In this document: positions 1-24,811 of the stretch, piece after piece
How the letters are laid out: each line of letters starts with the position of its first letter
Position numbering within the stretch: position 1 is the stretch's first letter
From: a virus
Lineage: Duplodnaviria; Caudoviricetes
DNA length: 31,082 nt
Reading direction: 5' to 3' (one strand)
IMG/VR virus record: IMGVR_UViG_3300037634_000692
Coordinates: 1 to 31,082 of that record
Position numbers and translations under genes: made by a program
Notes under the pieces: model-generated
Seen by the model: only the letters and a program-made list of their open reading frames with translations
Told to the model about the DNA's origin: nothing
Databases searched by the model: none

Positions 1-3000
1 TGTTTCTCCAGCTTTTTTATTTAATTTTTTACTAACTTTAGGAAATTGCTTTTTTAAATTACTGTAGTCATTTGCAGACGTTTGTCTAGATGTATTTAAT
101 TCATTTATACCTTTAGCGAAAGGGTCTACTAAGGCTTTCTTAAAAAACTCCATAGCCTCATCACCCTTTTTACCTCTTGGTATAAAGTTATATATCAACC
201 CCATAAAGTCTTGAGCTGAAGCAGGTATAATGCCTCTAAACTTCTTTTTACCACCTCTCATTCTAGCTTGTGCTTCTGAGAATATTTTTTTAGCCTCAAC
301 GCTAGTTGCTTGTTCCAATATATCGTTAAACTCCCCACTAATATCTTTACTAAACCGTATTCTACTACCACCAGCTACTTTTCTAGGTAATCCTTTAGCT
401 TCAGGATCTATTTCTAAAACCTTTTTTAAATCTATTCTTACTTTACCATCTACAGTTTGCGTAACGTTTTTTAAGTCAGAATTTTTTACTGGCATTCTCC
501 ATCCTATTTCTGTTATAGGATGAGTATTTCTATCTCTTACGATACCTTGGGCATCTAAATTAACCCCAGCGAACATATAAGCATATCCATCTTCCTCGTA
601 TTGACGCTCTATCATATCTCCTTTTTCCATAATTATGTCAGAGGCTGTAACACCTAATCCTGCAAACGCATTAATACCAGTCATATTACCATCCACCGCA
701 AAGTCATACGTAGCGATAGTCTCACCGTTTTTATTAAATTCTACTATTCTAAAAACGCTCCCATCTTTTCTAAATTCAGTCTTTTTAACTGTTTTACCAT
801 TAACTCTTTCTTCTACCATTGAATGTATTTCCGCCCAAGGTTTTCTAGACGGATATGTGGTTGTAACCGTGTTACCATCTTGACTAACAGTACGTACTTC
901 AACAAGGGTCTCGGATAAATCTTCGTTTATTTCTATTGATTTTGTAACCTTACCTTTTTTAATTATTATAACAGGACCCGCTGTATCATTATCCATTCTA
1001 TCCCAATACCGTCCATTAGCGAAAAAAGCTAATAGTTTTCCGTCTTGAAAGATTATTCTTTTTTGAGTTTCTCCATAACTTGTCCAACTTATTTTAGAAT
1101 CATCTGTTAATTTACCATCTTTAGATTGTGTTATACACCAAGGATTAGAATTTTTTCCCCAATGTGAATCTATAATATCTCTAACTGCCTGTTGGCCTTC
1201 TGGCGTGTTTTCTACATTATAAGTCGTAATTCCCCTTTTTTTATAAGACGCAGAGGGTGAAAATTCTTTAACATCATTTGGATCAAGAACTTTCTTTTCA
1301 ACCTTACCAGCGTAAGTTTCTATTATTTCATTAGGATTATTGTAAGAGAATAAATCTAACTTAAATCTTTCTGCCAAGTTAATAGCGTCTGTTATTTTAA
1401 ATCTATCTTCAATTAACTTTACGTTACTTGTAGCTAACCATTTAGTAGTTATTCTTTCGTATTTTCTTTTCTTATCGTTAGGAATATTTAAACTGTCTAT
1501 AAAAGTAAACATACCATCTACAGTTTGAGACACTTTTCCCTCTCTAACTAAATCAGGACGATGTTTAGATATTGTGTTTTCGTATTCTCCTCTATGTTTT
1601 TTTGAAAATTGGATTCTGCTATACACGCCCGGAGACGATAAAGATTCTACACTCTTAACACTATTAATATCACGTGCTTCTTTTATATTAGCAAGAGCAG
1701 GATTCACCAACATTCCATCCATTGTATGATCGATAGACTTACTGAACTTGATCTTAGCTTGAATAACCTTAGACTTAATATCTAATTGATCTAAAACACG
1801 CTTAACGGCTTCGACGTTTTGCATCGCATCATCTGCGAAGAACATATCATTATATCCCTCTGAAAATTTTTCTAACATCCATTCAGCTTTCGCTTCTCCA
1901 GTACTATTTCCTAACCCAGTTATATTTTCTATAGGAATATCTAATCCTTGAGACTTCAAAAACTCATGAATAGGTATTACAGCTTCGGATGGTCTAGCAG
2001 TCAATATATACGTGTCTTTCGTACCAAATTTCCCAGCTCTATCCATAGCTGTTTTAAACATAGGTCCTTGAGCTCCTTCTGTAACTACGTCAAATTCTGT
2101 AAAGTCAAACTCTCCACCTTGTTCTAATATTTTAGCTCCTTGAGTAGCAAATTCCTCAGCATCTAATCTAACTTTTTTATATCCACTAACAAAATCGTTC
2201 ATTTTATCCACTAGCTTAGAAGGCATAGCGTCTTCTTGTTTGAGCTTATCAGTGTTAACTTCCATGAATCTTTCACCAAACATTTCTTTAAATCCATTTT
2301 TATTTCCTTGAACTGCCTCGTGATTTTTTATAACAATTTTATCTAATAGAGATCTTTCTGCTCTAGCTTTATTTCTAGCTAAAGCTACATCTAAAGAAGT
2401 TTCAACGAAAGTCATACCAACATCATATCCTTTATCTTTAAATTCATTAACCAACGTTTCCATAGCTTTGATAGAACCACCAGTGCCATCTACAACAACA
2501 CCATCAGCGCTACCTTGATACTTCGTCATCTTTCTTTTAGCTATACCTCTAGCTTGATGCTGTAGCGTACCAAGTTTACTTCTTTGTTCTTTGGTAAAGT
2601 CGTTCATATTCTCTGGTAATCCAGAGTTCTTTTTTAACCACTCTAAAGATATATCAGAGTTAACTACTTTAAATCCTTGTCCTTCTAAATTTAGTTTTTT
2701 AATAACATTTCCTTTTCCGCTTCCAGCTCCACCAGCTAAGAATATAACTTTTCTATTAGGTTGTGGAGTTCCATCTGGATTAGGTATCCTAGCTCTTACT
2801 CCAGATTTAGTAGTAGCTAAAGTATCATCAAAATCCCAAGCGCTCATACCTCTTGAAGGTGTTTTGTGATTTATTAACCTAGCATTATCAACAGCTTTAC
2901 TAAACCTAAAAGCGTTGTTGATTTCGGATTTAGACGGGGTAACTTCTGCAATTTTAGAAAACTCAGTAACATATCTAGCATCAACTTCTCCTGTTAATTG

Positions 3001-6000
3001 TTTTATAATTAAATCATTAGCGGTTTCGACTGGCATTCCTTCAACACCAAAAAACTCTGCTATCGTTTGTCCTCCTTCTACTAATTTATAACTATTTAAA
3101 TCTATTCCAGCGACAGCTAATCTAACAACAGAAGACATACCATCTGGTAATTTTAATTCACCACTTAAAAGTCTAGGAACGATTTTATCAAAATAAATGT
3201 CTGGCATAGTATTCCCTAACCCAGCGGCTGCCAACATTTTATCGTGTGTTTCTAATAAAGAACCTTGCATATAAGACTTACCAACCACCCTCCAAACTGT
3301 ATCCACATTGGAAAAAGCAGCTGCAGCAAGCATAGCCTTACCAATTTGATTTTGAGGATCAGTATGTTCTTCTACAACACTCTTATTGTACACAGCGTTT
3401 CCATTTTTATCTACAGCATAAAAACTAAAAGGAGCTAAAATTCTTGTAAAAGTATTTTGATGTTTACCGGTGTCTAATAACATTTCTTCAAACATCCAAA
3501 CGTCTTGTGGAAAGTTTTGTAAATGTCCTTCCACCGCCTGAAAAAACTCAAGCAAAGTAGGTAATCTTTCTGATTGATCTTGTTTGAACTCGCTTGTATT
3601 TATTTTATCAACCGCACTTGGTTGAAGTCTTTTTCCTTTATTGTATTTTACTTGCTTTAGTTCTACTTCTCTAACACTTGTTTTATCTATTCTTGAATTA
3701 AAGTTTTTAACTGTTTTGTAAAAACCACCTTTTTCTCCACCTGTCATGGTGCTACGTATAAAAGGTCTAAATCTAGGTGCTCCTTCTAAAAATCTATTAA
3801 TAACACCATCGCCTTCTTCTCCATAGGTTCTTCCAGTTTCTTTACCATGAATCTTAAACGGAGCATTTAAATCTCTAGTAGAATATGTTTCAATAGTACC
3901 GTCAGATTTTTTTCTTTGGACTTGTTTATTTGGAACACGATCAATACCGTGTATCCAACCTAACGCTCCTAGTTTAAATATGTAAGTATCTTTAAAATTC
4001 TCTACATTATTTAACGCTAGATCTAAAGATTTTTTCTTCGTTCGACCTTCTTCACTAAACATTATTCTCGATTTACCATCAGCTATTCTTTGTATAGTCT
4101 CTATAGATTCTTGTCGTTCCATTAAGTGTTCTCTGACAGCTTGATTAGTAAGCATTTTACCTGTTTGAGATACTAATGCTTTTATTCTCGCACTAGTATT
4201 ACTATCTTTCTTATAAGTATTTTCTTTTCCTCTTTCTGTTATACCAAAAACTTCTAAAAATTCTTGGATTGAAATACCTTTGTTTTTTACTTGAATAGCT
4301 AAACCAGCCTTACTACCTGTTTTAGCAGATGTAACTCTACCAGTTTTAGTATAAAAAGCATCTAATAAAACTTTTTGAACGCCGGTAGACGTACCACCAA
4401 TTGTAGACCCTTCAGGTAGCATCTGCACCAGGGTCGCAGCATGTTTATTTATAAACATTTGGGCGTTCTTAATATCTTGTTTTGTTAAATTACCGACCTT
4501 AGGAACTATTCCAAACATTTGTTGTGTTAACTCTGGTGTTAAATCTTTTAATGTTTTGAAGTTAAGATTAGAAACGTCCATACCAGAAACTATTGCTTTA
4601 ACTTCTTTATTTATTTCAATAGCATCTGAACCTAATCTTTCTGATAGTTTTATTTTTTTACCCGTTGCTTCTTCTGTAATAGTAACGGTTTCTTCTGCGG
4701 CTATATCGCCTCTTTCAGATATATCTTCTGTAAATTCCTCACCTAATACTCTATTAGAAGCTTCTATAGCTCTTGACGGTAAGTATTTGTTTATATAAGC
4801 AGCTAATGGAACTCCTGACTCTGGTTTATACTCTTGTATTAAATCAAAAATACCTCTTGATCCTGTTTCTATTTCATCTGTTAATAGCTGTTTATCAAAT
4901 CCAGGTGCTTGCCTACGTCTCTCAACTATTTTATTAGTAATAGGCTTGAACTGTTCTATAATATCCATAGCCCCAGCAACTCCCTGTTCCTTATATATTG
5001 ATTGGACCTTATCAGAAGCTTCTTTAGAGAACATTGGAAATCTACCATCTGTATCCTGTTTAAGACCCATTTTTCTTAACGTCTTAGCCCATTGAATACT
5101 ACCGTATTTTATTGTACCACCTACTCTAGCTCCCTTCTTCATGGTTCTTTTCATCCCCTTACTCATTCTACTTTTGTCCATACTTCTATTATAGTCTCTA
5201 ACGAAGTTCATTACATCTCTACCAGTATTAAATGTAACTCTTTTACCACCTAGAGAAAACGCTCTTCTAAACATGTCCCCTATTTTAGTAAACACAGTTT
5301 CGTTAAACTTGATTTCACCAGATGCTAAAGCGTCTGAGAATAAAGTTAAAGTTTCTTCAGCTGAATTAATTTTATCTCCAGCTTGATAATCTTCAAGTCT
5401 TCTTTTGAAATTAGTGTTTTGTACACCTCTAGGATTCATATTCATTAACTGTTGCTCTAAGGCTTTTCCTACAGCTAACTTAGTGTGAGGGTTTTGATTA
5501 AAGGTTTTATTTAAAAATCTATGTAAAAATTCATGAACTGCTACGTTTGCGTTTCCGCCATCTACTTTAAGAGCAGCTTCCTTATTGATTATTATATCAG
5601 ACTCGCCGTCAATTTCTGGCGTAATAAATCCATGTACACTACCAAAATCTTGTGACATTTTATCAACATCTTCATTTAATTTATCTATATCAATACCTCT
5701 TTCATTTAAATCTTTTTTAGATAAAGTATAGTTATTCTTTTTATCTACATATACTTGTCTACCAGTTTTAGCGTCTTTAATTGTTTCAATACCGTATTGG
5801 TCTAATATGTCGTTTGTTGCTTTTTCTTTATAAACCTCAGCAGCTTCTTGTGAGCTTTCGTTTTCTATAATATTCAAACCTGGATCTACTTCCTTAGCGT
5901 GTTTTTTAACGTTTTCTAGATTCTTTTTATAAGCTTCAGTGTTTTTATCTTGATTTATAGATTCTATTACAGGACTTATTATTTCTTGTCTATCGTTTTC

Positions 6001-9000
6001 TAGTAAGTCTAATTCTCTTTGTAACTCGTCTAATTCTTTTAAAGCTTTTTGTTTATTTTTACTAGGATTTTTCTTTTTGTTTTTTATTTTTGTTTCTAAG
6101 TTCTCTATGTTTTCAGTTATTTTCTCTACTTCTTTAACTGACTCAGTATCTAAAGAGTTAATAGCCTCTACTTCCATTTCTGTCTTAATATCTTTTGCTA
6201 TCTCAACTAAATTCTTAGACGTTAAATTGTTTTCAAACTCAGTGCCTTTGAGAATATTATAAATCTCATCAAACGCATAGTAATCATTACTTATTTCTAT
6301 ATTAAGACCTTCTAGCTGACCATTATCTTTAGCAAACTGAACAGCCTCCGCGGCGTCTTTAGGGTTACTGTAACTATCCATACCTACAATATAAACTGGA
6401 TTATCACCCTTGTCTGTTGCAAATTCCCAAACCCTACTTCCCGCCCCAAACATCATCTGCATCGCGCTTATCTGAATAGTCATTTCTTCAAAAAACTTTC
6501 TATCCATACCGTCGTTCCATCTTTTTCCATCAATCCAGTTGTGAGCAGGTTGACCTATCATTTCCTCAAACATCTCCGGTAATATTCCATTCCAACTACC
6601 GGCTTCTATAAATTTTTGAAGGAACGTTGGATCAGCTGGATTTAAACCACTTTTTCTAGCCCAATTACCTAAAAACATTCTTTTTGCCCACTTTGGATTG
6701 TTTTTCAATTTTGTCCTTAAAAACTTTTGTCCAGTAGGTAAGAGTTCTCCAAATCTTTCTGTTGCAAATTCAATAAAATTATGTTTATAAGAATCCCAAA
6801 AAGCTTCCCAACCATCTTTGGTCTCATCGTATGTAGGTGTCCATTTTTTATCTCCCGGCATGTTACCATCTGCGTCTGGTACTGGAAATCCTAAATTATC
6901 AATATCAATAATCATACCGTCAGCACCCTCTGTTAACGACCAAGACATTTCTGGCGTTAAGTTTTGCTCATACCCTTTGTATATATTAGCGGCCCCACCA
7001 ACGGTAGCCATCGTAGCTGTTGTCATCAAATACTCAACAATTGTAGCTGCTCCATCTTGTATCTTAAATCCAGACGATGGCATGCCTTTCATCTTTATAT
7101 ATCTATCTAATGTTTTTTGAGACGTAAAAGCTAACCTTCCCTTTCCTCTTACTAAAAGATTACTACTTCTTCCAACTACTTTACTTAATCCTCTTGTAGC
7201 AACCATTTCAACCATAAACTTCAGGGAGCTGACAGCGCCTCCTCCTGCGTTATAAGAAGAAGAGCCCTCACTTAATCTATGTTTCATGTTCCCATCTTCA
7301 ACGTAAAACAACAAAACTTGTCTTTCGTCTATAGTCAATTCTGGATTATTATCCGGATCGTCAGTATGGAGTTTTTCTTTCTTTAATAAATCGTTTATAT
7401 AACTCTGGTGTCTACCAGCTTGAGCATCAGCAATAAGAGGCATCCATTCTCCTCTAGAAAAAGCATCCCCCATCCCATCAAAAAACTGACCAACAGCAGT
7501 ACTTTTCATAAACTCAGGACTCTTCATTATACTTCTAGCGTAATACAACTGTTTTTGTTGTGCTTCGGTTAAATCATCTTCGCCATCTAACATATCTATT
7601 ACTTCATCTGCCCACATTTTCATCGCTGTGTTAGTAGGACGTCCTTTTTTATCCAAAGAAATATGACTATAAGCTTTGTAGTAAAACTCTTCTCTTCTAG
7701 CATCGACATCTTCTTTAGACATGCCATTAGCATCATATATTTGTTCTTGAGCTGCCCAAGCTAGATTTATAGATGCCACCTGTCCTTTCCAACCTAAGGT
7801 ATGAAATTTAAATTTTTCGTTCTGAGTAAGACCACCGAAAATTTCTTTATAAGTGGCTTCTGGAATTAATTGAGTCTGCCCTTTTTTAGTTTCGTAAGCG
7901 TTTTCTACAAAGTCATCTTGAAAATCTATTGATATTTCTTCGAATTCCTTAAGTTTCTTCTCTTTCCAATCACCTAAAATTTTATCTTCTTCCTCTAAAA
8001 ATCTCTTTTGATACAACGCATTGAAGTCTGTGTATATTGCATCTAATTCTTTTTGTCTGCTTGTCTTTTGAGAGTTTTGCCATTGGCTATATTTTTTGTC
8101 AGATCTACTTTTCCATTCGTCTTTAAAATCTTGATCTGATTGAGGATCAAAAGTACCTTCTTCTATTTCTTTAAGAAGTTGTTGTTCTACCTCGTCTACT
8201 ATTTCACTTCCTTTTGATTCGTCTTGTTTTATAAACTTATTATTTACACCATCTGCTTTCAAATTCAATTCATCGACTTGATCTTTGAATTCAGTTTCTA
8301 AAGTTGTTTTAATGGTTTCTATGTGGGGTTTTATTTTGATGTCGTATTCAAGATGGTAATCTTCTTCTAATTTATCCTGTTTTACCTTCCATTCTTTTTC
8401 CATTTCTGGAAGAACTTTATTGTTAAACCAATCCGTCTCTTGTTTTTGTTTATACTCTATTATATCCATATAAAGAAGACCTTCTTCTTTAACTTCTACA
8501 GTTTCAGGAAGAGCTGCTTCTTGCTTCTCTAATTCCTCTAGATATTCCTCATAATCACTTTCGCTTTTCTTTTCTAACTCGATCGCTTGGGACCCAGCCG
8601 CTATCTCTCCACCACCTGTAACGATTTTATGTTCCTTCCCGTTTACTATAACGGTAGTGGTATTCATTCCTTCTTCATAAAGTCTATTATACTCTCTATC
8701 TAAAACATCTTCTAATATATGTTCTTTACGCATCCAGTCATTGTGTAGCGTTTTCATCTTCAGCCATTCGTCCATATGTACTTCGGGATCAAAACCAGTC
8801 GCTGGATCATATCTATATGTGTGGTTTTTACCAGCTACTTTTTTTGTAAATGTTAGTAAACCAAATTTATCAACACCTTCAATTGGAGCTTCAGAGTCAT
8901 CTTTTTTCGTGAAATCTGGATGATCTGACATTAAAACAAACACAGGTGGGGCTTTCTCAAATCCCGAATGTAAAGTACGTTGACCTCTGCTATTCTTTTT

Positions 9001-11091
9001 TCTAACTATGTAAGAGTTAGTTTGCATTTCTATGCTACCTCTTCTATCTCCTTTCTCGACATACGGTTTAAGAGAGCCAAATGAAGACGCTTGTTTTCCA
9101 GGAAGATAGATTCTTTCTCTATTAGTAGCTATATGCTCTATATACGCCGTCACGTCAACTCTCCCATGCTCATCGATAAACTTATCTCCATACTCTAGAG
9201 CGTCATCAGTTACATCTCCCGCGTAAGAGTTCCACCCACCAGCAACAACATCGAGAATCGCATCACTATCTTTGTTACTAAATCTTAAATCTGATTTATT
9301 CAAAAAAGAAACGTATCGCGCATAAACATCTGCCCACATTGCGTCAGGATCTTTATTATAAGAAGTAGCTAAATCTATAACTATCTGTCCACGATCTCCA
9401 AATCCAAAATCCATCTTATCTCCTGAATATCTAGTTCCCCCCGCCCCTCTTCTAGTAATAACTAACTCATCAGCTCCACTTAAATTATTATAATCAAAAT
9501 CATAATAATATTGTCCTTTAGCGTTTTGAGCTTCCATACTAGAATTGTAATCTACTTTATCGTTAAAGTGATTATGATATTCTTGTAATCTTTCGGATAT
9601 AAATTCTTCCATATCAGATTCACCAGAAATTTCTTCTGTTAACTGCATAAAGGTTTCGTAATCAACAGTACCACTAGTCATTCTTTTATCGTAACTAACC
9701 TCTATCTCATTGTCTTCGTCAGTATAACCTTCGTAAGGTACTTGCTTTAACCTTCTTTTCTCTTCGTTTCTTTTATATATTTCTTCTCTTTGATCTTTAT
9801 ATGGATCTTCCCAATCTTCTCGTGATTTTACTATTTCTTCTTTGGTAGGATCAACCCCCTCTTGTTCCCAAGCAAATTGAGGTGCTGTATCTCCATAACC
9901 GGATGTTACGCCGGCCTTAGCAAGACTATGTTCCATCACGTCATAATATTCCCCATTTCGTACCAAATTATTGTATTCTATTTGTGATATTTCTTCGTTT
10001 TCTAATTGTTCTTCGTATTTTGGTAATTTTTCAGCCTTACGTTTTTCTGTTTCTTTCTTACTTTTAACTTTTTCTAATTCTGTCTTTAACTGATCAACAG
10101 ATGCTTGGCTAACTCCTAATATTAATTTTTGAGAATCTCTTAATACATAAGCGTCAGGATCTACAGCTTCTATTTCATCAAACAATTCTTGTCTTTCATG
10201 TATAAGATCTAGTGTTGCTTGCAATCTCTTAGGATCTTGTATATCCGCCCAAGCACGACCCTCACGACCATCATTGAAATCGTAATCATAAATATATTTC
10301 TTAATCAACTCCTTATCCTCATCAGATATGTCAACTTTTTCAACAAACTTTTTGTCGTTTACCCAATCGTCCCACTCCTCTTCTCCGTTAATCCTACTTA
10401 AAAACAGATCATAAGTATTATCACTATGTTCCTTCTTCTTTTTTTCTAATTCTGTCTTTAACTGATCAACAGATTCTTCTTTCTCTTCTTTTAAACGTAC
10501 CGCTTTCTCTTCTTTTAAACGTACCGCTTTAGCCACGTCGTCATTCACTTCCCATGTTCCAATACCATTTCTTCCAAAATTTGCATCCCATTCTTTCGGA
10601 ATAATAGGATTTCCATTTTCGTCTAGTTTAACCTCTACATCCTCGTAGTCCTGCAACCCGTTGTTATAAATGTTAATTACTGGAACATAACCTTCTGTAT
10701 CTTTATTTTTATTGTGATTCTTTTTCCAATTCGATAAAAAATCTAGTTTTGCTCCCTCTCGCTCTAAATCCCACCATTCCCAATCATCCAAAGCTTTTAC
10801 GTTGTATTTTTCTTCAAATTCTAATTTTTCTAATTCGAGTGTAACCTTATCAATATCTTCTTTAGATCCGTCTCCTTCAAATAAATCTTCTAATTCAGTT
10901 TCTTTATCTAAAATTTGGTTTTTTATTTTAAAGTTGGCTTTTTTTTCTTCTTTATCTTCAACTTCTTCAACTTCTTCTTCAAAACCAGGATTAGCCGCGT
11001 GCCAACCAGCCTCTGTTTTCCATTGCGTACCTACTTCATGCGCTAAGGCATTGCCTTCTTTATGTTTTAAAGGTGATTTAGTTTTATTCAT
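1..11091 (-). CDS. Giant (>3697 aa, 3'-truncated) polyvalent virion/ejection protein with zincin, sigma-like, HNH-like, HAD phosphatase, P-loop kinase and WC-motif modules
   Basis: ATG at 11091-11089, one base after the TAA of the upstream gene. It reads MNKTKSPLKHKEGNALAHEVG... to ...FPKVSKKLNKKAGET at base 1. I saw no in-frame stop in manual translation, and its absence from the ORF track fits a frame with no stop in the window. Motifs: HEFLH 5521-5535, DFDDT 2821-2835, GGAGSGKG 2710-2733, ILTAR 1993-2007, FADD 1828-1839. Its position after the tail genes is typical of ejected internal proteins. Confidence 0.9.
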   Translation of the reverse strand, partial: MNKTKSPLKHKEGNALAHEVGTQWKTEAGWHAANPGFEEEVEEVEDKEEKKANFKIKNQILDKETELEDLFEGDGSKEDIDKVTLELEKLEFEEKYNVKALDDWEWWDLEREGAKLDFLSNWKKNHNKNKDTEGYVPVINIYNNGLQDYEDVEVKLDENGNPIIPKEWDANFGRNGIGTWEVNDDVAKAVRLKEEKAVRLKEEKEESVDQLKTELEKKKKEHSDNTYDLFLSRINGEEEWDDWVNDKKFVEKVDISDEDKELIKKYIYDYDFNDGREGRAWADIQDPKRLQATLDLIHERQELFDEIEAVDPDAYVLRDSQKLILGVSQASVDQLKTELEKVKSKKETEKRKAEKLPKYEEQLENEEISQIEYNNLVRNGEYYDVMEHSLAKAGVTSGYGDTAPQFAWEQEGVDPTKEEIVKSREDWEDPYKDQREEIYKRNEEKRRLKQVPYEGYTDEDNEIEVSYDKRMTSGTVDYETFMQLTEEISGESDMEEFISERLQEYHNHFNDKVDYNSSMEAQNAKGQYYYDFDYNNLSGADELVITRRGAGGTRYSGDKMDFGFGDRGQIVIDLATSYNKDPDAMWADVYARYVSFLNKSDLRFSNKDSDAILDVVAGGWNSYAGDVTDDALEYGDKFIDEHGRVDVTAYIEHIATNRERIYLPGKQASSFGSLKPYVEKGDRRGSIEMQTNSYIVRKKNSRGQRTLHSGFEKAPPVFVLMSDHPDFTKKDDSEAPIEGVDKFGLLTFTKKVAGKNHTYRYDPATGFDPEVHMDEWLKMKTLHNDWMRKEHILEDVLDREYNRLYEEGMNTTTVIVNGKEHKIVTGGGEIAAGSQAIELEKKSESDYEEYLEELEKQEAALPETVEVKEEGLLYMDIIEYKQKQETDWFNNKVLPEMEKEWKVKQDKLEEDYHLEYDIKIKPHIETIKTTLETEFKDQVDELNLKADGVNNKFIKQDESKGSEIVDEVEQQLLKEIEEGTFDPQSDQDFKDEWKSRSDKKYSQWQNSQKTSRQKELDAIYTDFNALYQKRFLEEEDKILGDWKEKKLKEFEEISIDFQDDFVENAYETKKGQTQLIPEATYKEIFGGLTQNEKFKFHTLGWKGQVASINLAWAAQEQIYDANGMSKEDVDARREEFYYKAYSHISLDKKGRPTNTAMKMWADEVIDMLDGEDDLTEAQQKQLYYARSIMKSPEFMKSTAVGQFFDGMGDAFSRGEWMPLIADAQAGRHQSYINDLLKKEKLHTDDPDNNPELTIDERQVLLFYVEDGNMKHRLSEGSSSYNAGGGAVSSLKFMVEMVATRGLSKVVGRSSNLLVRGKGRLAFTSQKTLDRYIKMKGMPSSGFKIQDGAATIVEYLMTTATMATVGGAANIYKGYEQNLTPEMSWSLTEGADGMIIDIDNLGFPVPDADGNMPGDKKWTPTYDETKDGWEAFWDSYKHNFIEFATERFGELLPTGQKFLRTKLKNNPKWAKRMFLGNWARKSGLNPADPTFLQKFIEAGSWNGILPEMFEEMIGQPAHNWIDGKRWNDGMDRKFFEEMTIQISAMQMMFGAGSRVWEFATDKGDNPVYIVGMDSYSNPKDAAEAVQFAKDNGQLEGLNIEISNDYYAFDEIYNILKGTEFENNLTSKNLVEIAKDIKTEMEVEAINSLDTESVKEVEKITENIENLETKIKNKKKNPSKNKQKALKELDELQRELDLLENDRQEIISPVIESINQDKNTEAYKKNLENVKKHAKEVDPGLNIIENESSQEAAEVYKEKATNDILDQYGIETIKDAKTGRQVYVDKKNNYTLSKKDLNERGIDIDKLNEDVDKMSQDFGSVHGFITPEIDGESDIIINKEAALKVDGGNANVAVHEFLHRFLNKTFNQNPHTKLAVGKALEQQLMNMNPRGVQNTNFKRRLEDYQAGDKINSAEETLTLFSDALASGEIKFNETVFTKIGDMFRRAFSLGGKRVTFNTGRDVMNFVRDYNRSMDKSRMSKGMKRTMKKGARVGGTIKYGSIQWAKTLRKMGLKQDTDGRFPMFSKEASDKVQSIYKEQGVAGAMDIIEQFKPITNKIVERRRQAPGFDKQLLTDEIETGSRGIFDLIQEYKPESGVPLAAYINKYLPSRAIEASNRVLGEEFTEDISERGDIAAEETVTITEEATGKKIKLSERLGSDAIEINKEVKAIVSGMDVSNLNFKTLKDLTPELTQQMFGIVPKVGNLTKQDIKNAQMFINKHAATLVQMLPEGSTIGGTSTGVQKVLLDAFYTKTGRVTSAKTGSKAGLAIQVKNKGISIQEFLEVFGITERGKENTYKKDSNTSARIKALVSQTGKMLTNQAVREHLMERQESIETIQRIADGKSRIMFSEEGRTKKKSLDLALNNVENFKDTYIFKLGALGWIHGIDRVPNKQVQRKKSDGTIETYSTRDLNAPFKIHGKETGRTYGEEGDGVINRFLEGAPRFRPFIRSTMTGGEKGGFYKTVKNFNSRIDKTSVREVELKQVKYNKGKRLQPSAVDKINTSEFKQDQSERLPTLLEFFQAVEGHLQNFPQDVWMFEEMLLDTGKHQNTFTRILAPFSFYAVDKNGNAVYNKSVVEEHTDPQNQIGKAMLAAAAFSNVDTVWRVVGKSYMQGSLLETHDKMLAAAGLGNTMPDIYFDKIVPRLLSGELKLPDGMSSVVRLAVAGIDLNSYKLVEGGQTIAEFFGVEGMPVETANDLIIKQLTGEVDARYVTEFSKIAEVTPSKSEINNAFRFSKAVDNARLINHKTPSRGMSAWDFDDTLATTKSGVRARIPNPDGTPQPNRKVIFLAGGAGSGKGNVIKKLNLEGQGFKVVNSDISLEWLKKNSGLPENMNDFTKEQRSKLGTLQHQARGIAKRKMTKYQGSADGVVVDGTGGSIKAMETLVNEFKDKGYDVGMTFVETSLDVALARNKARAERSLLDKIVIKNHEAVQGNKNGFKEMFGERFMEVNTDKLKQEDAMPSKLVDKMNDFVSGYKKVRLDAEEFATQGAKILEQGGEFDFTEFDVVTEGAQGPMFKTAMDRAGKFGTKDTYILTARPSEAVIPIHEFLKSQGLDIPIENITGLGNSTGEAKAEWMLEKFSEGYNDMFFADDAMQNVEAVKRVLDQLDIKSKVIQAKIKFSKSIDHTMDGMLVNPALANIKEARDINSVKSVESLSSPGVYSRIQFSKKHRGEYENTISKHRPDLVREGKVSQTVDGMFTFIDSLNIPNDKKRKYERITTKWLATSNVKLIEDRFKITDAINLAERFKLDLFSYNNPNEIIETYAGKVEKKVLDPNDVKEFSPSASYKKRGITTYNVENTPEGQQAVRDIIDSHWGKNSNPWCITQSKDGKLTDDSKISWTSYGETQKRIIFQDGKLLAFFANGRYWDRMDNDTAGPVIIIKKGKVTKSIEINEDLSETLVEVRTVSQDGNTVTTTYPSRKPWAEIHSMVEERVNGKTVKKTEFRKDGSVFRIVEFNKNGETIATYDFAVDGNMTGINAFAGLGVTASDIIMEKGDMIERQYEEDGYAYMFAGVNLDAQGIVRDRNTHPITEIGWRMPVKNSDLKNVTQTVDGKVRIDLKKVLEIDPEAKGLPRKVAGGSRIRFSKDISGEFNDILEQATSVEAKKIFSEAQARMRGGKKKFRGIIPASAQDFMGLIYNFIPRGKKGDEAMEFFKKALVDPFAKGINELNTSRQTSANDYSNLKKQFPKVSKKLNKKAGET
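1753..2850 (-). other. HAD-superfamily phosphatase domain, interrupted by a P-loop kinase
   Basis: All four HAD motifs occur in order: I AWDFDDTL, II YILTARP, III K in GEAKAEW, IV MFFADDAMQN. Confidence 0.85.
2180..2770 (-). other. P-loop kinase domain (zeta-toxin/AAA_33/polynucleotide-kinase-like)
   Basis: KVIFLAGGAGSGKG (Walker A), VVNSD, GVVVDGTG, GYDVGMTFVETSLDVALARNKARAER (RxxxR lid). Boundaries are approximate. Confidence 0.85.
5340..5640 (-). other. Zincin-like metallopeptidase domain within the giant ORF
   Basis: HGFITPEIDGESDIIINKEAALKVDGGNANVAVHEFLH: GF strand, IIIN strand, then the HExxH helix. A downstream EE (SAEETLT, 5353-5358) about 55 aa later is the candidate third Zn ligand. 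Confidence 0.75.
10069..10474. repeat. 34-bp exact direct repeat pair (10069-10102 and 10441-10474) encoding SVDQLKTELEK
   Basis: tttttctaattctgtctttaactgatcaacagat occurs twice, 372 bp apart and in the same frame. Confidence 0.9.
10480..10530. repeat. 24-bp tandem duplication (KAVRLKEE x2)
   Basis: tttctcttcttttaaacgtaccgc at 10480-10503 and 10504-10527. Confidence 0.9.
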
Positions 11092-11092
11092 A

Positions 11093-12124
11093 TTAAATTA
11101 CTGCTTCTGTTTGATTTGGTGCTTCTGTTTGACTTGGCGTGCTTCTTTTTTGACTTGCCACTTCTCTTTGATTTGGAGCAATTCCCTGTTGTTGCATTTT
11201 TTGATCTAAACTTAATTTCGACCTTCCTCCTACGTTGGAACTAGATGCCACTTCTCTTTGATTTGGAGCAATTCCCTGTTGTTGCATTTTTTGATCTAAA
11301 CTTAATTTCGACCTTCCTCCCACATTGGAACTAGATGCATTACCATCTCTTATAGTTTTGTAATCTGAATCAAAGGCAACTCTAAGCCTATTAGCATAAT
11401 AAACATGTAACCTAGTGTCGTTATTAGGATCAAAAGAATCTGGATGCAACAGATCATCTGTTATTTCACCAGATGTCAATGCTTCTTGATTTTCTTTCAT
11501 CCATTCTTGTAAAAAATATACCCCACCTATTTTATCAGAAACAAATATTTTCCAAGCATCCATATTAATGAGTAATTTATCAACCGCCCAATCAATATCA
11601 AAATTAGGGTGTTTAACAGCTGTTTGTCCTTGTTTTACTAAGTCTTGATGGTATTTCATATAATCAGCCTCTTCAGTACCCTTAATAACCCAGTTCTCTG
11701 TAATATCCTCAATACGTTTGACTATTGGGTTACCAGCTGGGTCGATAGCGGTAAGTAAAAGATCAAAGTTTCCATCAAAAGAAATAGTACCTCCTTCTCC
11801 AAAAAAAGCTCTTTCCCAATTAAGATCAGTATAGTTCGAGAAAAGATTTTTCCCTCCAGTTCCTCCCCCATAATTCATAGCGAATTCCTCTTTAATAGCT
11901 TTTAAATTATCCAACTTTCTAGCTATACTTTTTATGAGATCAGATATAGTCTGAGATCCTTCTTTATCTCCACTAGCAAATAACGCATCGAATTGTTTAA
12001 CTAAATTAGATATTAGTTTATTAATAACCCGCTGGTTAGCCTTACCATGTATTTCTGATGACTTAGAGTCATTGCCATAAGGTATATTTTCAAAATACTT
12101 CTTTATATTTTTATCGTCTGACAT
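11093..12124 (-). CDS. Hypothetical protein, probable internal virion/ejection protein (343 aa) with a repetitive C-terminus
   Basis: ORF track. It lies between the pilot-like gene and the giant ORF and is coupled to the latter (TAA-T-ATG). Function is inferred from position only. Confidence 0.6.
   Translation of the reverse strand: MSDDKNIKKYFENIPYGNDSKSSEIHGKANQRVINKLISNLVKQFDALFASGDKEGSQTISDLIKSIARKLDNLKAIKEEFAMNYGGGTGGKNLFSNYTDLNWERAFFGEGGTISFDGNFDLLLTAIDPAGNPIVKRIEDITENWVIKGTEEADYMKYHQDLVKQGQTAVKHPNFDIDWAVDKLLINMDAWKIFVSDKIGGVYFLQEWMKENQEALTSGEITDDLLHPDSFDPNNDTRLHVYYANRLRVAFDSDYKTIRDGNASSSNVGGRSKLSLDQKMQQQGIAPNQREVASSSNVGGRSKLSLDQKMQQQGIAPNQREVASQKRSTPSQTEAPNQTEAVI
11156..11338. repeat. 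90-bp tandem duplication (ASSSNVGGRSKLSLDQKMQQQGIAPNQREV x2)
   Basis: Units 11156-11245 and 11246-11335 are 88/90 identical, and both differences are synonymous. Confidence 0.95.
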
Positions 12125-12136
12125 ATTGTTTTATTT

Positions 12137-12775
12137 TTATCCTGGAATAAATGATGATATCCCACTACTAACTGCTCCAGATACAAATTGATCTACCGTA
12201 GCTTGAGCATCAGCAATAGCTTGATCAGACGCATTCTTTCTTTGCATTGCGTAATCTAACATTTGCTCTTCTTTCTTTATATCATGAGCTTCTACCATTC
12301 TTTTACCTTCTCTAACCATTAAATCTCTTTTTTGCTCGCCTTCTACCTTCATTTGCTGTAACCTTCCAGATTCAGCTATCATTTTTTGTTCGTTAGCTTG
12401 TTCTTGAGCTCCAATGGATACAGATGCTTGTTGTGCTTGTTTCACACCTTGATTAGCTAATACTTGCGCTAATCCTGCTACGCCACTTCCTCCAGTTGAT
12501 CCCTGCATACTTTGCATTATATTTGCCATAGATTGTTGGGATTGTTCCTTCTCAAACTCAGCTTGTTTTAAGTTTACAGTTGCGTCTTCGTAAACATTTT
12601 CTAAGTTCTCGTAAGGATTTTTCACTCCCGCATAGGGATTCTCCATTTTTCTTTCTTCCCAATCTGCATATTTTTGTCCAAAATCTTCGTTAGCTGATCG
12701 CTGCTCGTCTCTTCTTGCGGCTCCTCCAAATAAAGCGTTTATGAATTTTGTTGGTGCTGCTTTTTTATTTGCCAT
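12137..12775 (-). CDS. Probable small ejection/pilot-type internal virion protein (212 aa)
   Basis: Gln/Ala-rich helical sequence with Gly-rich hydrophobic patches (ALFGGAA, GGSGVAGLAQVLA, FVSGAVSSGISSFIPG). It sits directly after the tail genes, like T7 gp14 or P22 gp7-type proteins. Confidence 0.6.
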   Translation of the reverse strand: MANKKAAPTKFINALFGGAARRDEQRSANEDFGQKYADWEERKMENPYAGVKNPYENLENVYEDATVNLKQAEFEKEQSQQSMANIMQSMQGSTGGSGVAGLAQVLANQGVKQAQQASVSIGAQEQANEQKMIAESGRLQQMKVEGEQKRDLMVREGKRMVEAHDIKKEEQMLDYAMQRKNASDQAIADAQATVDQFVSGAVSSGISSFIPG

Positions 12776-12813
12776 AATTATATTGTTTTATTTATTATTA
12801 CAGTTTTTATGTG

Positions 12814-13206
12814 TTATTTACTACTAGGAGTTGTTTCAGAAGCTATAGAGAACATTTCAGCTTTTTCAGTTGAATTGTTTTTAATATACACTTCTGCGTA
12901 ATACCCCACTAATCCAGATAAGTTTATCCTACTATCTTTAGCGAACATGATGAAGTCGCCAGAGTTATCAAAAGTCGTCATCGGTATAACATTATCAACC
13001 TGGATACTAAACATCGGGGGATTCCACTCTGGTTGAGAAACACTAGTTCCATTAACATCAAAGAAATCTATAACTGGACCTATAAAAATAGGTGTAGCGT
13101 TCAATTGTTGAAAACCACCTAAAAGCGTTGGAGTTATAGAATAAGCCATATCTCCTATTTGTAAAGAATCATTATTTATACCTCCTGTAAAGTTTATTGT
13201 TATCAT
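12814..13206 (-). CDS. Conserved-looking tail-associated protein (130 aa)
   Basis: ORF track. C-terminal SGLVGYYAEVYIKNNSTEKAEMFSIASE resembles termini of stabilization/nozzle-type proteins (recollection, not searched). Confidence 0.55.
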   Translation of the reverse strand: MITINFTGGINNDSLQIGDMAYSITPTLLGGFQQLNATPIFIGPVIDFFDVNGTSVSQPEWNPPMFSIQVDNVIPMTTFDNSGDFIMFAKDSRINLSGLVGYYAEVYIKNNSTEKAEMFSIASETTPSSK

Positions 13207-13215
13207 ATTCTATTT

Positions 13216-14460
13216 TTAACTAGCCGTTCCTATTGTGAATATCTTACTTGTATCAATATATATATTTTGATCTACGCTTGGATATTTACTTATATGTATA
13301 GTTCCACTTAAGTAAATTACATTGCTACTTCCATCTATATAGACTATCGTCGCTGTGTTTATATCACTTTTACTAGCGTCAAACCTTCCGTTTTCAATTT
13401 CAATCTGTCCATCGCCATCATCAACAGTTGCTGGATTCATGCCAGACACCTTGCAAGCATTTGTATCAGTACTTTTATTGATAAATCTACATCTAACAGT
13501 AGCTCCAACACTTATACCAGTCGTACCGTTAACCTGCAAAACCGTCGCTGTTCCAGATGTTATAGCCGTACGAACTGTAGTAGACGTTTGTCCCAATTTA
13601 CAAGTTGGATTAGTTAAACTTAATCCAATACCAATAGCATTTTGAATAAGTCTCGGTCCGTAAGCTCTAAAAGTCATAGTATGACCATCTGTTATTGCTT
13701 GATTTCTGGATAACGTTAGTGTTTTTGTATCTGTGTTTACAGCTGTTATTGTAGTGGCAGATCCAGGCGCTGTTGTACCTGTTATATAGGTTAATTCCAT
13801 TCCTATTACTAAACCTGTTACATCAGCAACCACAACTTGATCACTATCAGCAGCGGTACCTCCAGAATTATTTTCCGTAGTACTCCAATACAAAGCGTTT
13901 TCGCCCCATGATCCGTTATTGCTAGTGTCGTCTGCGTTTGTTATAAAAACTCCATAATCTCCTGTAGCATCTGGAACAGTTAATTGTAAATTAGCCATAG
14001 TAACCGTGGGACTCCCCACGCTTGTAAAACTATCTATTATAGATCCAGTAGAAGTATCTATAGCAGTAGCAGAAATTGTAGAAATAGAAGTGTCCGTGGT
14101 AAATGTTATCGTAGTATTAGCAACTTGTGTTATGGTTGTAGCGTAACGTATTCCATTACCTATAGAAAGTCTTGTATCATAATGCGGTTCGGCCATAATT
14201 ATTATGGTATAGGTATCTCCATTCTCAGCAGCTGGAATAGCTATGCTAAAGGTCCCTGGTCTTTGATTTTTTAATCTACTTTGAGAGGTGGTAGCAGCTG
14301 CGAACGCTTTAGTAGTAAAATTATAAAATTGGCCATCCGAAGATCTAGTAACCTGCACGCTAAAAACAGCGCTACTATCTCCAACAACTTGTATTGGTAG
14401 ACTGGTAGCCTCAGCTTTTAATCTTGTATTATTTATATTTACCGCTGTAATTAGTGCCAT
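13216..14460 (-). CDS. Thr-rich all-beta virion structural protein (tail appendage candidate, 414 aa)
   Basis: High T/S/G/A content, beta-strand patterning and GLVIGMEL/GISVGATV small-barrel-like segments. It is coupled to the upstream gene (TAA-T-ATG). Confidence 0.6.
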   Translation of the reverse strand: MALITAVNINNTRLKAEATSLPIQVVGDSSAVFSVQVTRSSDGQFYNFTTKAFAAATTSQSRLKNQRPGTFSIAIPAAENGDTYTIIIMAEPHYDTRLSIGNGIRYATTITQVANTTITFTTDTSISTISATAIDTSTGSIIDSFTSVGSPTVTMANLQLTVPDATGDYGVFITNADDTSNNGSWGENALYWSTTENNSGGTAADSDQVVVADVTGLVIGMELTYITGTTAPGSATTITAVNTDTKTLTLSRNQAITDGHTMTFRAYGPRLIQNAIGIGLSLTNPTCKLGQTSTTVRTAITSGTATVLQVNGTTGISVGATVRCRFINKSTDTNACKVSGMNPATVDDGDGQIEIENGRFDASKSDINTATIVYIDGSSNVIYLSGTIHISKYPSVDQNIYIDTSKIFTIGTAS

Positions 14461-14461
14461 A

Positions 14462-17400
14462 TTAATCTATTGTTTCTACTATTCCTAATCCTTGGAAATT
14501 AAAGGCCGCTGTGTCTATTTCACTTGGTTTTCCTTTAATATAATTAAACCATTTGCCTTCTTTTTCTATAAACTCATTTAGCGTTCCCTCTTGTTTATCT
14601 GTGCGTATGTTTGAAACATACCATCCGTCTTCTGATTGCAAGTTGTAATACTCTCCATCAGTAAGACCAGTCGTTGGATCTGTTGTAAATTGGTCTATTT
14701 TAGATTGGCTACCTTCGTAATTCAAGGTATTAAAATTCTTAACAACCGCCGGGTGCATATTTAATATTGGAGTTATAGATGATTCTTCATGCGTTCCGTA
14801 AAAAGTATTTCTATTTATTTCTATACCTGATGAGCTAAACTGTTCTACATGATGTTTCCATAACTGGCCAAAACTCATAGTATAATACTGATTAACACAA
14901 CTAAGCCCAAACTCAGGAACAAAAGATTTGAAACTAGTCCAGCCTTTTGACCGTTCGTTAAAAGTCAGGGTTGACCCTTGTCCTGAATTTATAATTAAAG
15001 AAACGTCATCTAGTTGAAATTTGTAAGGATAATTATCACTTACTCTGAATCCAAAAACTCCACTCGTACCTAAATTCCAACCAGAAGGGGACGATGCTCC
15101 TCCAGCTGTAGTATTATATACTTGAGTAGTTATAGTATCTGAAACCGTACCCTGAACAACGTAATTATTGTCCTGGTTAAAGGTATACTCAAACCCATTA
15201 CCAGCAGAGTTATACATATACATAGTTATCTCCGCTTGATAAGCGGGATTTAAGTTTGTTATATTAAACGATACCGTGAAAGAAGTTCCAATCGGATAAT
15301 CTACAGATAAAAACTGCTCAATACCACTGTCAACCGAAGCGTCATCGAATTCTATGTATCCAGGTCCGGTAGGAGATGTATTACTAACAGGCAAGAAATA
15401 AACCTCACTTGTAGGATTTGGAAATATACTCCAATCTGCTATTCCCCCTCCTGTGTAACTTATTTCTTTTAGGGAAACATCCTTAATTAAGACTTGATCT
15501 CCCATTTGTTGGTAAATAGTAACAGGAAATCCTCCAGTAACTATATCAAAAATTGTACTATAAGTGTCTCCGCTCTCAAAAGTGTAATCATGGAGAGCAA
15601 AGTTGTCACCAAAAGTTTGAACAACCCCTGTTAAAGATTGGTTTGAAGACTTGTTGAAAGAGGCTTTATATTTTTTACCTGCTTGTAAGTTATACGTATC
15701 ATGTATTAGCATTGGCTCTGGCTCTGGATTTGTATCTTCGTGAAAAGCAAAAGCGTTAGAACTGGTTACGGTGGCGCTATATGTGTTAAACTCAAATCCT
15801 TGATAAGTCCAATCGTCAATACTTTGACCCGTAACAACTGTTGTTGATGGGCGTGTAAATTCAAAACCTGGTACCCAAGGTATTCTCCATTGCCACTCAG
15901 GTAATGTATTACCAGGGAAAGTTGCATTTAAGTTAGCTGGCGCTGGATCATAATATGGATTACCCGTCTGTCCACCAGAAGGATGTGTTAACTGAGTCAT
16001 GTTTAAAGGTGGAATTACATCAATAGTTACTTGTATTGTTCCTGGATAACTACTAGGTTCCCAAACACCGTTTACGCTTCCTAAAATTGGTGGATTGTTA
16101 AAACCCTGTGGTCCTGGAGTTTTAACTTCATCTCCAATGTGAATATGAGGATCTGTTAGTTCTACCCATCTAATAGTAACTGTAGCAATAACACTAGATT
16201 GATTAGTTGTACTACCTGTCGTGCTCCAACCCACTAATCTAGCGTCTTTATCTTGATATCTATCAGTTTTAGCATAATTTGAAGGATAAGTAGTTGTAAT
16301 ATCTGTAGTTGCTGAAAAATCCCAATTAGTTAAAAGCTCAGGACCATAAATTTCCGTAGGAGTTCCCCCTTGATTAAACCCAGGGTTTACGAGTAGATTC
16401 TCTCCAGTTGACAGAAATATAGATAAGTTATAATCTCCTTTGTGAGCATCATAACTACCATATAATCTTTCACCGTCTCTTAAATTATCTCTGAAGTAAT
16501 CGTGCATTCCAGCGTCTGATATTGGAGTTAATCCGTCCATAGATAATCTTATTACAGCCCCTCTTTGTTTATCTGTGAAGTAAGATCTAAATGATTCCGC
16601 TGCGAATGACTCTGGATTTTTAGATATACCAAAGTTACCTCTAAAAGGCTCTGCTGTTCCTAATACTCTGTTCGTAGCTAATAATTGTGTGTTTCCATCT
16701 GCATTATAAAGTATATCTTTATCTACATACACTCTAATAATTTTATCTTCACATAGAGTTATAAGATCTTTATCTCTCGCGTATAGCTTTTGTATACTAC
16801 CATATGATGGCATTAAATCTTTTGTTATCTTTTCTGCTTGTATAAACTGATTTAAATTATTAACCCCACTTGTAGAGTTATATAAACCAGAATATATTAA
16901 TCCGTGTTTTCTTCTTTCTTCCTCGTATGGCTCTTCTAATACTGTAGATGCTTTAACTCCATTTAAGATATATGACTCGTTAAAATCATCTCTAATTCTA
17001 TTAGATTCAACTCCGTTACCAAAACTAAAGCAATTGAAAAATGGTAGTCCCGTGTATTTATTGTGAACATTGTTACTAATAACAAGCTTGGTTACGTAGT
17101 ACTGCCCGTTATTAGGACCTGTTATCCCGTCACTTGGTATATTGAATATTCGTGCAGAAGTATAGCTCCCGTTTTCTTTCCAAAACTTTAAGGTTCTATT
17201 GTAGAATTCTCCAGTTTGACCACTCGGTGTTGGAGGTTCATTCGGAGACACTTTTAATCCAGGTCCGTTTAGCTCAACTATATTTCCGTCCCACGCTTTT
17301 ACTCTTACCCAAAAATCTTCTCCCCACTCAGCGTTTTGATCCGAGTAGTCCAATACAGATCCTGGTAAACTACATGTAACTCTACTTCCTACAGGTGCTA

Positions 17401-21604: not shown

Positions 21605-21607
21605 ATT

Positions 21608-22966: not shown

Positions 22967-22970
22967 TTAT

Positions 22971-23675
22971 TTATTGTTTTTCTTGTTGAATATTCTTCGT
23001 GTCTTCTCCTGCGGCTACTTGATATAAATTTGGATCTTTTAGTGTGACTCCTGCTAAAGTTAATATTTTCAATACTAATTCTGTTTCTTCAGATGGATGT
23101 AAATCAAAATCTTGAGCATCATTAGCCGTTGCGTTATACAATGCTTTCTCTCCAACAACTACATATGTCCAATTTACGGGTCTAGGTGATTGGATGTAAT
23201 CTATATCTAAACTCCCAAAATTTCTACCAGCAACTTGAATAGTATTGTCTACTGTGTCTACCATGTATATAGGTCTCGTGGCTGTAGGTGCTGCTAATGG
23301 ACTGTTAGGGAACATTCTATAATCTTTTCTATTAACGCTTTCTAATATCAAATTTCTTCTTCTAACATTAGATAATCTATAAAATCTATCTAAAGTATTT
23401 AAGTTACCAGTACTATTTCCGCCAATCGGTCCTTGTAATTGATCTGTTACTTCAAACGCACTTATCTTTTCTTCTAATATATCCACCATATCAGCGTGCA
23501 TAGTATCATTACCAGGCATTCTTCTAAATTGATTTAAATCGTAGAAATATTGTTCGAATATATCCATTTGAGCTTGATTAGCAAAAATGTTAAATTCTTG
23601 AGGAGTAATATATCCTCGTTGCTCTTTATTTGCGAGAGTTAGAACTCTTTGATATATTCTATCTACGTTTATCAT
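22971..23675 (-). CDS. Tail ring/head-tail adaptor-like structural protein (234 aa)
   Basis: NKEQRGYITPQEFN.FANQAQ...DYI..P..V.W...DFDLHPSEETELV.KIL pattern, and position between capsid and nozzle genes. Confidence 0.6.
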   Translation of the reverse strand: MINVDRIYQRVLTLANKEQRGYITPQEFNIFANQAQMDIFEQYFYDLNQFRRMPGNDTMHADMVDILEEKISAFEVTDQLQGPIGGNSTGNLNTLDRFYRLSNVRRRNLILESVNRKDYRMFPNSPLAAPTATRPIYMVDTVDNTIQVAGRNFGSLDIDYIQSPRPVNWTYVVVGEKALYNATANDAQDFDLHPSEETELVLKILTLAGVTLKDPNLYQVAAGEDTKNIQQEKQ

Positions 23676-23684
23676 AATATTTTT

Positions 23685-23840: not shown

Positions 23841-23848
23841 ATAATTAT

Positions 23849-23886: not shown

Positions 23887-23892
23887 GTTTGA

Positions 23893-24735: not shown

Positions 24736-24759
24736 AATATAATATATAATAAAATTAAT

Positions 24760-24795: not shown

Positions 24796-24811
24796 CTAAT
24801 ATAATAAATGC

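Follow-up and report, generated by a model that had tools for sequence, protein, structure and literature searches.

A P-loop kinase nested in a hairpin of a HAD phosphatase within a giant phage protein

T4 Pnkp (PseT; 1ltq, 1ly1, 5uj0) joins a P-loop kinase and a DxDxT HAD phosphatase in one chain, with the kinase N-terminal and the two domains in tandem. The catalytic set of its phosphatase consists of Asp165, Asp167, Ser211, Lys258 and Asp278 (PMC3592404), and phage PNK-HADs have an N-terminal kinase fused to the HAD, according to the passage on them in PMC7824862. In the sections of PMC3902929 and PMC2831316 that deal with the motif, RNA-repair Pnks all share Asp-X-X-Arg (DxxR; Asp35 and Arg38 in T4); in both T4 and Cth Pnk this arginine, which binds the first phosphodiester, is essential, and CthPnk Ser22 is an essential Mg-binding residue (same sections of PMC3902929). 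For zeta kinases, the corresponding passages of PMC6362051 and PMC3062530 give GTxR as the UNAG-binding motif. Polyvalent phage proteins are known to include zeta-like kinases and ARTs (passages of PMC5512222 and PMC9503650), and crAss001 virions contain cargo proteins, which they eject (passages of PMC10172136). The locus described here likewise has a P-loop kinase and a DxDxT HAD in one chain, but the kinase lies inside a hairpin of the HAD. Since the parts are known enzyme types, the surprise is in their layout and context.

The window, that is, the whole stretch of DNA analyzed (31,082 nucleotides), is a 31-kb viral record and a fragment, on which every long ORF is on the minus strand (Table 1). 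Its gene block runs from terminase through portal, a capsid-like gene, virion structural genes, a crAss-type muzzle and two to three small genes to a giant ORF; two likely small cargo genes lie within the block. The portal is 38–51% identical to those of elemo phages, Maribacter phage Panino and MW202828, and the 87 matching records include Cellulophaga phages phi38:1 and phi13:2. In phi38:1, gp101 (annotated "structural protein") is the last and largest gene of the equivalent block, and the giant ORF occupies the same slot. The crassvirus cargo proteins, phi38:1 gp101 and phi13:2 gp127 share with the window a large gene that closes the block after the muzzle and two smaller genes; unlike the crassvirus cargo proteins, the window gave no RNA polymerase family match in Pfam and PHROGs searches. 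Sequence similarity was not detected between the giant protein and gp101, gp127 or Panino CDS0069, nor was homology to any proteomically shown virion protein, so the term "virion cargo" derives from gene position. The sequence-only reading had called this a virion protein, a label that its slot in the structural block bears out in part: the giant protein is likely to be packed in the virion and injected.

The giant protein also resembles polyvalent proteins in combining, within a single long chain, a zincin-like peptidase with multiple enzyme modules that vary (HExxH region, kinase, HAD and sigma-like region), and the distribution of modules across giant proteins is patchy. As in the polyvalent phage proteins that the passages of PMC5512222 describe, the build is giant and multi-domain with a varying set of domains, among them ART-like modules, a zeta-like kinase and a zincin-like motif. 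The HEFLH zincin-like region is common to 120 of 210 long homologues and is also found in the MW202828 giant ORF (E 2.8e-7); a search of the cultured-phage collection with the zincin/sigma region gave no match. A sigma-like region was seen in the same giant protein as the HAD in one relative (P0184).

Table 1. Positions of the features in the window.
Feature	Position	Strand	Basis or remark
Structural gene block	11093..31081	-	Pfam crAss_MUZ_C; PHROGs portal, terminase, virion structural families
Terminase	29894-31081	-	PHROGs
Portal	27526-29892	-	PHROGs
Capsid-like gene	24812-26320	-	
Muzzle gene	14462-21604	-	Pfam crAss_MUZ_C
Giant ORF, 3697 aa, last in structural block, 3' end open (runs off contig)	1..11091	-	Likely virion cargo (polyvalent) protein
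Zincin-like metallopeptidase motif HEFLH, within giant protein	5521..5535	-	Sequence
Nested module	1753-2850	-	Residues 2748-3113 of the 3697+ aa ORF
HAD N-terminal part: strand 1, motif I, first hairpin strand	2770..2850	-	Sequence, model
HAD motif I DFDDT	2821-2835	-	
First hairpin strand	2782-2799	-	Model
Inserted P-loop kinase, about 193 aa	2185..2763	-	Pfam AAA_33/Zeta_toxin; structure closest to CthPnk 4gp6
Kinase Walker A GGAGSGKG	2710-2733	-	
Kinase VVNSD with general-base Asp	2653-2667	-	
Kinase VVVDGTG	2479-2499	-	
Kinase lid RNKARAERSL	2347-2376	-	
Second hairpin strand and native small cap element	2092..2181	-	Strand at 2164-2181
Cap motif FDFTEF	2092-2109	-	
HAD C-terminal core	1753..2091	-	Best fold match T4 Pnkp phosphatase
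HAD motif II ILTAR	1993-2007	-	
HAD motif III Lys within AKAEW	1879-1893	-	
HAD motif IV FADD	1828-1839	-	
Conserved downstream domain of giant protein, cut by contig end	1..360	-	Independent family handle

All HAD and kinase motifs of the nested module were found in a single frame of its translation, bearing out the series from DFDDT to FADD that had been read from the letters. Homologues with and without the insert were compared: the kinase is nested at a hairpin in one set, and the hairpin is empty in the other. In the insert-free relatives, motif I is followed by a short hairpin with a PDG turn and then by AEEFA...FDFSEF. The sequence across this point reads ...VITTSPDG/VPGKLTAEEFA (the slash marks the junction), so the insertion lies at the turn of the hairpin. 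The insert is 197–205 aa long, and 199 aa in 229 of 244 cases, including that of the window. The AlphaFold model of the nested module (85 sequences) had a pLDDT of 89 and a pTM of 0.73, and strands 18–23 and 224–229 were paired around the kinase; the model of an insert-free relative had the same hairpin, formed by strands 17–21 and 27–31. Solved HADs aligned over residues 1..366 of the nested model with the kinase skipped (5uj0: Z 12.8, rmsd 2.5, 123 residues). The models predict that both HAD halves form a single continuous fold around the kinase, and the proposal of one Rossmannoid HAD fold stands. The kinase had also been said to occupy the C1 cap position. It does lie within the C1 region, but the native cap (a helix plus FDFxEF) is present with and without the kinase, both in the relatives and in the two models, so the kinase is an addition to this region and not a replacement cap. 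In the models, this cap is small and the HAD site open. A HAD with a complete kinase at the tip of its hairpin is thus a real layout.

A total of 369 distinct modules were compared (226 nested, 137 insert-free and 6 other), from which fragments lacking a full HAD had been excluded. The HAD catalytic motifs were invariant or nearly so over the nested and insert-free modules. Both motif I aspartates, the motif II threonine and arginine and the second motif IV aspartate were found in 226/226 nested modules, and the motif III lysine and the first motif IV aspartate in 225/226. The motif set of the HAD superfamily is present (DFDDT, the T of ILTAR, the K of AKA and the DD of FADD), and equivalents of T4 Asp165, Asp167, Ser211, Lys258 and Asp278 occur in at least 225 of the 226. 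The kinase retains the P-loop lysine, the general-base aspartate, DGTG and the lid arginines. Mean pairwise identity was 65% for the kinase and 64% for the HAD (127 nested modules). Judged by these residues, both active sites look functional. It is most improbable that the kinase, the HAD or both serve as inactive scaffolds, or that the nesting is an artefact of sequencing or gene calling: a decayed kinase copy in the loop of one relative (P0186) and a P-loop GKG without the Mg-binding hydroxyl would fit this, but the catalytic residues are near-invariant over hundreds of sequences, and the number of distinct nested and insert-free modules, with an insert of near-constant length, excludes chance and mis-assembly. 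(No nested module was found in the cultured phages of the collection.)

By sequence, the HAD belongs to no named family: it fell below every Pfam cut-off and had no NCBIfam match. A PDB sequence search with the HAD profile gave nothing useful, hhalign against T4 Pnkp matched at motif I only (probability 22%), and Foldseek returned weak generic HAD matches, none with E ≤ 0.001, with Pnkp absent among the matches listed. When the insert-free model was ranked against solved folds, the T4 Pnkp phosphatase 5uj0 came first (Z 13.0, rmsd 2.5, 123 aligned), followed by the Capnocytophaga Pnkp1 HAD 4xrp (Z 12.6) and 1ltq (Z 12.3), at 11–15% identity; the next HAD had a Z of 11.0. The fold is predicted to be nearest to the Pnkp phosphatases. 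Like T4 Pnkp, the module keeps the HAD catalytic set and equivalents of Asp35, Thr86 and the lid arginines of the kinase. It differs in the arrangement of the two domains (rmsd 21.7 for a two-domain alignment to 1ltq), in the absence of an Arg38 equivalent and of a detected Rnl1 partner, in the optional nature of the kinase, and in being part of a 3700-aa structural-block protein.

The kinase scored above the Pfam cut-offs for both AAA_33 (37.9 bits) and Zeta_toxin (35.3 bits; cut-off 22.3). In the fold ranking, CthPnk (4gp6) came first with a Z of 17.0 (rmsd 2.9, 166 aligned), ahead of a putative kinase (16.2) and PSTK (16.1), the three being near-tied within 1 Z; T4 Pnk and zeta both had a Z of 14.7, Kti12 13.8, AvrRxo1 13.0, and NMP kinases 13.6 or lower. 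CthPnk was also first in the profile search (E 7e-5), and hhalign matched the kinase to T4 Pnk with a probability of 90%. CthPnk is 20% identical to the kinase of the window, and their lids are close (RNxxRxER and RNKNRTDR); the window has no equivalent of its Arg41, has Gly at the Ser22 position, and does not show the Hen1/Rnl context of the Cth and Capnocytophaga Pnks. The DxxR arginine was in fact found in 0/234 kinases aligned to T4: the aspartate is kept, and position +3 is Leu in 224, Ile in 8, Thr in 1 and Met in 1. The helix that precedes DGTG carries invariant basic residues (K2854 and K2857), which may take the place of the Pnk arginine.

The sequence-only reading had taken the GKG at the end of Walker A as a likeness to NMP kinases. 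NMP kinases of the adenylate kinase type have a fixed GKGT P-loop. Here, the residue after the P-loop lysine is Ser in 112, Gly in 106 (including the window, GKGN) and Thr in 16 of the 234 kinases, with about nine switches between GKS, GKG and GKT on the kinase tree; such a labile position is no sign of NMP-kinase specificity, and that likeness does not hold. The score against the NMP-kinase model TIGR01360 was 17.8 bits (cut-off 284). In the GKG forms the usual Mg-binding hydroxyl, contributed by Ser22 in CthPnk, is missing.

Kinship with zeta kinases had been suggested too, and it holds in part: the Zeta_toxin cut-off was passed about as well as that of AAA_33, and the zeta and PezT toxins and AvrRxo1 (PF06414; 1gvn, 2p5t, 4z8q) share with the window the kinase fold, the catalytic aspartate and the GT of GTxR, but the UNAG-binding arginine is absent. 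GTxR is replaced by GTG(G/A), with DGTGGS and DGTGAS the commonest variants and GT always followed by G in 41 aligned kinases, and, unlike zeta/PezT, the kinase is nested in a phosphatase. (The automatic UniProt label of one family member is "UDP-N-acetylglucosamine kinase".) Among free-standing relatives, those of HTVC008M, Melnitz and Atu_ph07 are nearest, and the Atlas neighbors are viral Zeta/AAA_33 clusters. With DxxR absent, GKG labile and GTxR absent, the kinase forms, by its sequence, a separate family in the Pnk/zeta/PSTK group. These data bear on the alternative that the two domains act independently of each other as effectors, on small molecules, and that their nesting is incidental. 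The kinase would then, like zeta-family kinases, phosphorylate a nucleotide-type metabolite (a nucleotide sugar, an NAD-related compound or a defense signal), and the HAD would be a nucleotidase. The Zeta_toxin match, the Atlas neighbors, the missing DxxR, the fold scores of zeta and AvrRxo1, the ART-like domains in the same loop (see below) and the zeta-like kinases in the polyvalent proteins of PMC5512222, as its passages describe them, are consistent with this alternative. The loss of the UNAG motif argues against it, as does the ranking of three Pnkp phosphatases as the best folds of the HAD, more than 1 Z above other HADs.

How closely the two enzymes belong together was addressed with relatives chosen by the downstream domain, and not by either enzyme, using a query from a nested locus. 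The best 80 of 107 loci were taken; two had too little upstream DNA, leaving 78 to be scored. Among these, the HAD was present in 78/78, insert-free in 71, with the kinase in 6 and with another insert in 1. (Ten of the 71 insert-free HADs were missed by the motif pattern but gave an unbroken profile match.) Searches aimed at the insert yielded 405 distinct pattern-parsed HADs, a set that is not a frequency estimate, of which 206 had the kinase, 176 had no insert and 23 had another insert. The latter comprised two ART-looking clusters of 13 and 3, five short helical inserts and two singletons. Matches to ART-PolyVal fell below the cut-off (L156, E 0.001; P0257, E 0.025), and the second ART-looking cluster had no ART match. 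The kinase also occurs outside the HAD, about 1000 residues upstream of it in four relatives (P0176, P0177, P0178 and P0181) and directly downstream in P0184, where the order of the two is the reverse of that in T4 Pnkp. Within the giant protein, the HAD is nearly constant, and the kinase is optional and mobile.

On a quick HAD tree, the nested state required eight changes, at least five of them forced by starred branches, and the nested label required at least three on a quick kinase tree. A single fixed origin of the nesting is unsupported by the HAD tree, although within-gene recombination could mimic this pattern. No insert-free HAD was more than 81% identical to any of the 206 kinase-bearing HADs, which argues that the kinase insert is old and kept, and against pure chance; 13 of the 23 other inserts had an empty relative at 85% identity or more. 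The description of the locus as a rearranged PNKP-like module therefore needs qualification. The nested topology, the intact catalytic residues and the Pnkp domains as best structural matches agree with it. The unit that it implies is weakened, because the HAD is the core and is usually kinase-free, the loop takes other enzymes, and the kinase also occurs elsewhere. Most likely, the nesting exploits a surface loop that tolerates insertions, with no need for the two sites to be coupled; the locus is best described as a Pnkp-type phosphatase core in whose tolerant loop interchangeable enzymes are carried.

A description of the nested kinase-in-HAD layout was not found in the literature searched, in which subscription journals were scarcely covered. 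The main text of PMC5512222 has no occurrence of "phosphatase" and no passage on a HAD domain (its online supplements may list this HAD), and its passages on domains do not include nesting of one enzyme in another at one hairpin. The HAD is a near-constant, unnamed part of a giant structural-block protein in a widespread marine phage group, outside the Pfam families. The series of empty loop, kinase, ART-like inserts and kinase elsewhere offers a natural test of how enzymes nest and of whether nesting couples their activities.

Healing of tRNA requires an RNA ligase, and a host ligase can seal healed DNA nicks. In 30 related genomes, 18 of them at least 90% complete, neither Rnl1 (for which the T4 control was positive) nor RtcB was found. 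PF09414 ligase-like matches occurred in 5 of the 30, and the two looked at were ATP-dependent DNA ligases. A partner RNA ligase may be host-encoded or divergent. From the failure to find Rnl1 and RtcB in these genomes, we infer that DNA ends are favored over tRNA. It is most likely that the module works like Pnkp, yet two features of membership in that group are missing. Tentatively, we favor a reading in which the module consists of end-healing enzymes in an injected protein, which likely act on nicks in DNA without being obligately coupled. The giant protein would be packed in the virion and injected with the phage DNA; where a nucleic-acid strand is broken, the HAD would remove 3'-phosphates and the kinase would phosphorylate 5'-OH ends. 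The breaks treated would most likely be nicks in the phage DNA as it enters, and a host or phage DNA ligase would seal the healed nicks. Should the HAD indeed heal DNA ends immediately after injection, it would act as a counter-defense against nucleases that is packed in advance. The earlier proposal of an injected end-healing enzyme agrees with Pnkp domains being the best matches of both HAD and kinase, but the missing DxxR arginine, the Gly at the Mg-binding Ser22 position, the near-tied kinase folds, the low identity of the HAD to Pnkp phosphatases and the ligase-like matches in just 5 of the 30 genomes count against it.

The missing DxxR arginine and the failure to find Rnl1 or RtcB in the 30 related genomes argue against repair of tRNA in the manner of T4. 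It is quite unlikely that the pair is a coupled Pnkp that uses the kinase as a substrate-presenting cap and, like PseT of T4 in its response to PrrC, heals anticodon-nuclease cuts in tRNA: besides the Pnkp matches of both parts, this reading would draw on the age and retention of the insert in the main lineage and on the third place by structure of PSTK, a tRNA-acting kinase, but most relatives with the sequence covered have the HAD without the kinase, and the kinase is also found outside the HAD. A more elaborate form of the DNA-end reading, which we consider unlikely, is that the HAD hairpin would be a display socket for exchangeable enzymes (the kinase, at least two ART-like types and others) beside a Pnkp-type phosphatase, the kinase-loaded form being a ligase-free end-healing head that would read 5' ends in a new way, without the Pnk arginine, and mend nicks in incoming phage DNA before expression.

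The neighbors of the free-standing relatives fit nucleic-acid ends and small nucleotides about equally. One free-standing HAD (L026) adjoins HD, Nudix and CCA-adding-type genes, and another (L176) a weak Rnl1-like gene (E 1e-5, below the cut-off). One HAD relative (L168) is fused to Nudix and others to cytidyltransferase-like domains, and in L177-L179 and L181 a free-standing HAD follows DUF6267/HIGH genes. The free kinase of HTVC008M lies between DUF6267 and a HIGH nucleotidyltransferase, directly upstream of the latter. The CCA-adding-type and Rnl1-like neighbors would suit nucleic-acid ends, the position of this kinase and the Nudix and cytidyltransferase-like fusions would suit small-molecule targets, and since the neighbors fit both substrate types, we keep such targets as possible, if rather doubtful.

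By eye, DUF6267 has ligase-like motifs. A ligase identity was not borne out when its profile was searched against the PDB and compared with four ligases, one weak NCBIfam RNA ligase match (E 0.019) aside; DUF6267 is absent from the 30 related genomes, and no literature match was found for it. It was set aside as ligase evidence.

Finally, the targets might be proteins or aminoacyl-tRNA, with the HAD dephosphorylating host proteins and the kinase acting on the translation or transcription machinery as PSTK or Kti12 does. This is very unlikely, since the HAD protein phosphatases rank under the Pnkp domains (MDP-1, Z 10.0; Lem4, Z 9.7). The small cap and open site of the models and the PSTK and Kti12 folds are consistent with it, as are the best NCBIfam score of the HTVC008M relative, which was with PSTK (E 2.5e-10, far below the cut-off), and the sigma-like region in P0184.

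The FSK motif recurs at the module borders of the giant ORF, at residues 2021, 2711, 2730, 3116, 3162 and 3580. A motif of the form [FYM]S[KRQE] lies at most 14 residues after the HAD in 119 of 228 relatives, compared to 3.5% of random windows. These FSK-type motifs may be cleavage sites of the HExxH peptidase of the same protein.

The block that follows the HAD is common to about 62 of the 210 long homologues, and contains a match to DUF2963/MORN-like repeats. The ART-PolyVal-like inserts at the HAD hairpin have empty relatives (lacking any insert) at 85–93% identity, which suggests that these inserts were gained or lost recently. The Sigma70_r2 match in the giant-protein homologue P0184 was weak (E 0.012).

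Features of the giant protein, its neighbor and related loci
Feature	Location	Residues	Strand
Sigma-70 region-2-like stretch	window about 4760-5031	about 2021-2110 of giant protein	(-)
~450-aa block, HAD to conserved downstream domain	window about 380-1745	about 3120-3570 of giant protein	(-)
~30-aa tandem duplication ASSSNVGGRSKLSLDQKMQQQGIAPNQREV	343-aa gene, window 11093-12124	about 263-325 of 343-aa gene	(-)
ART-PolyVal-like domains, same HAD hairpin tip as kinase	L150:9431-10009; L156:9587-10009; P0236; P0257		
Free-standing HAD of same family, then HD, Nudix and CCA-adding-type genes	L026:6274-9276		
DUF6267 (PF19782)	L165:2209-3438; also L177-L179, L181		
Small DNA ligases, ATP-dependent, from related genomes	L184:1855-2688; L186:1588-2439		

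Ligase-like matches were found in 5 of the 30 related genomes, and the two that were inspected (L184 and L186) are small ATP-dependent DNA ligases. The DUF6267 motifs KxDG, GDLL, EGYV and VKIV occur in the same order as in the motif set of ATP-dependent ligases; profile searches against the PDB and four ligases did not confirm the likeness, and no paper found by literature search named the family.

The locus with the free-standing HAD is a large-phage contig. The tandem duplication sits close to the C-terminus of the 343-aa protein, and the giant ORF also carries short repeats towards its N-terminal end.
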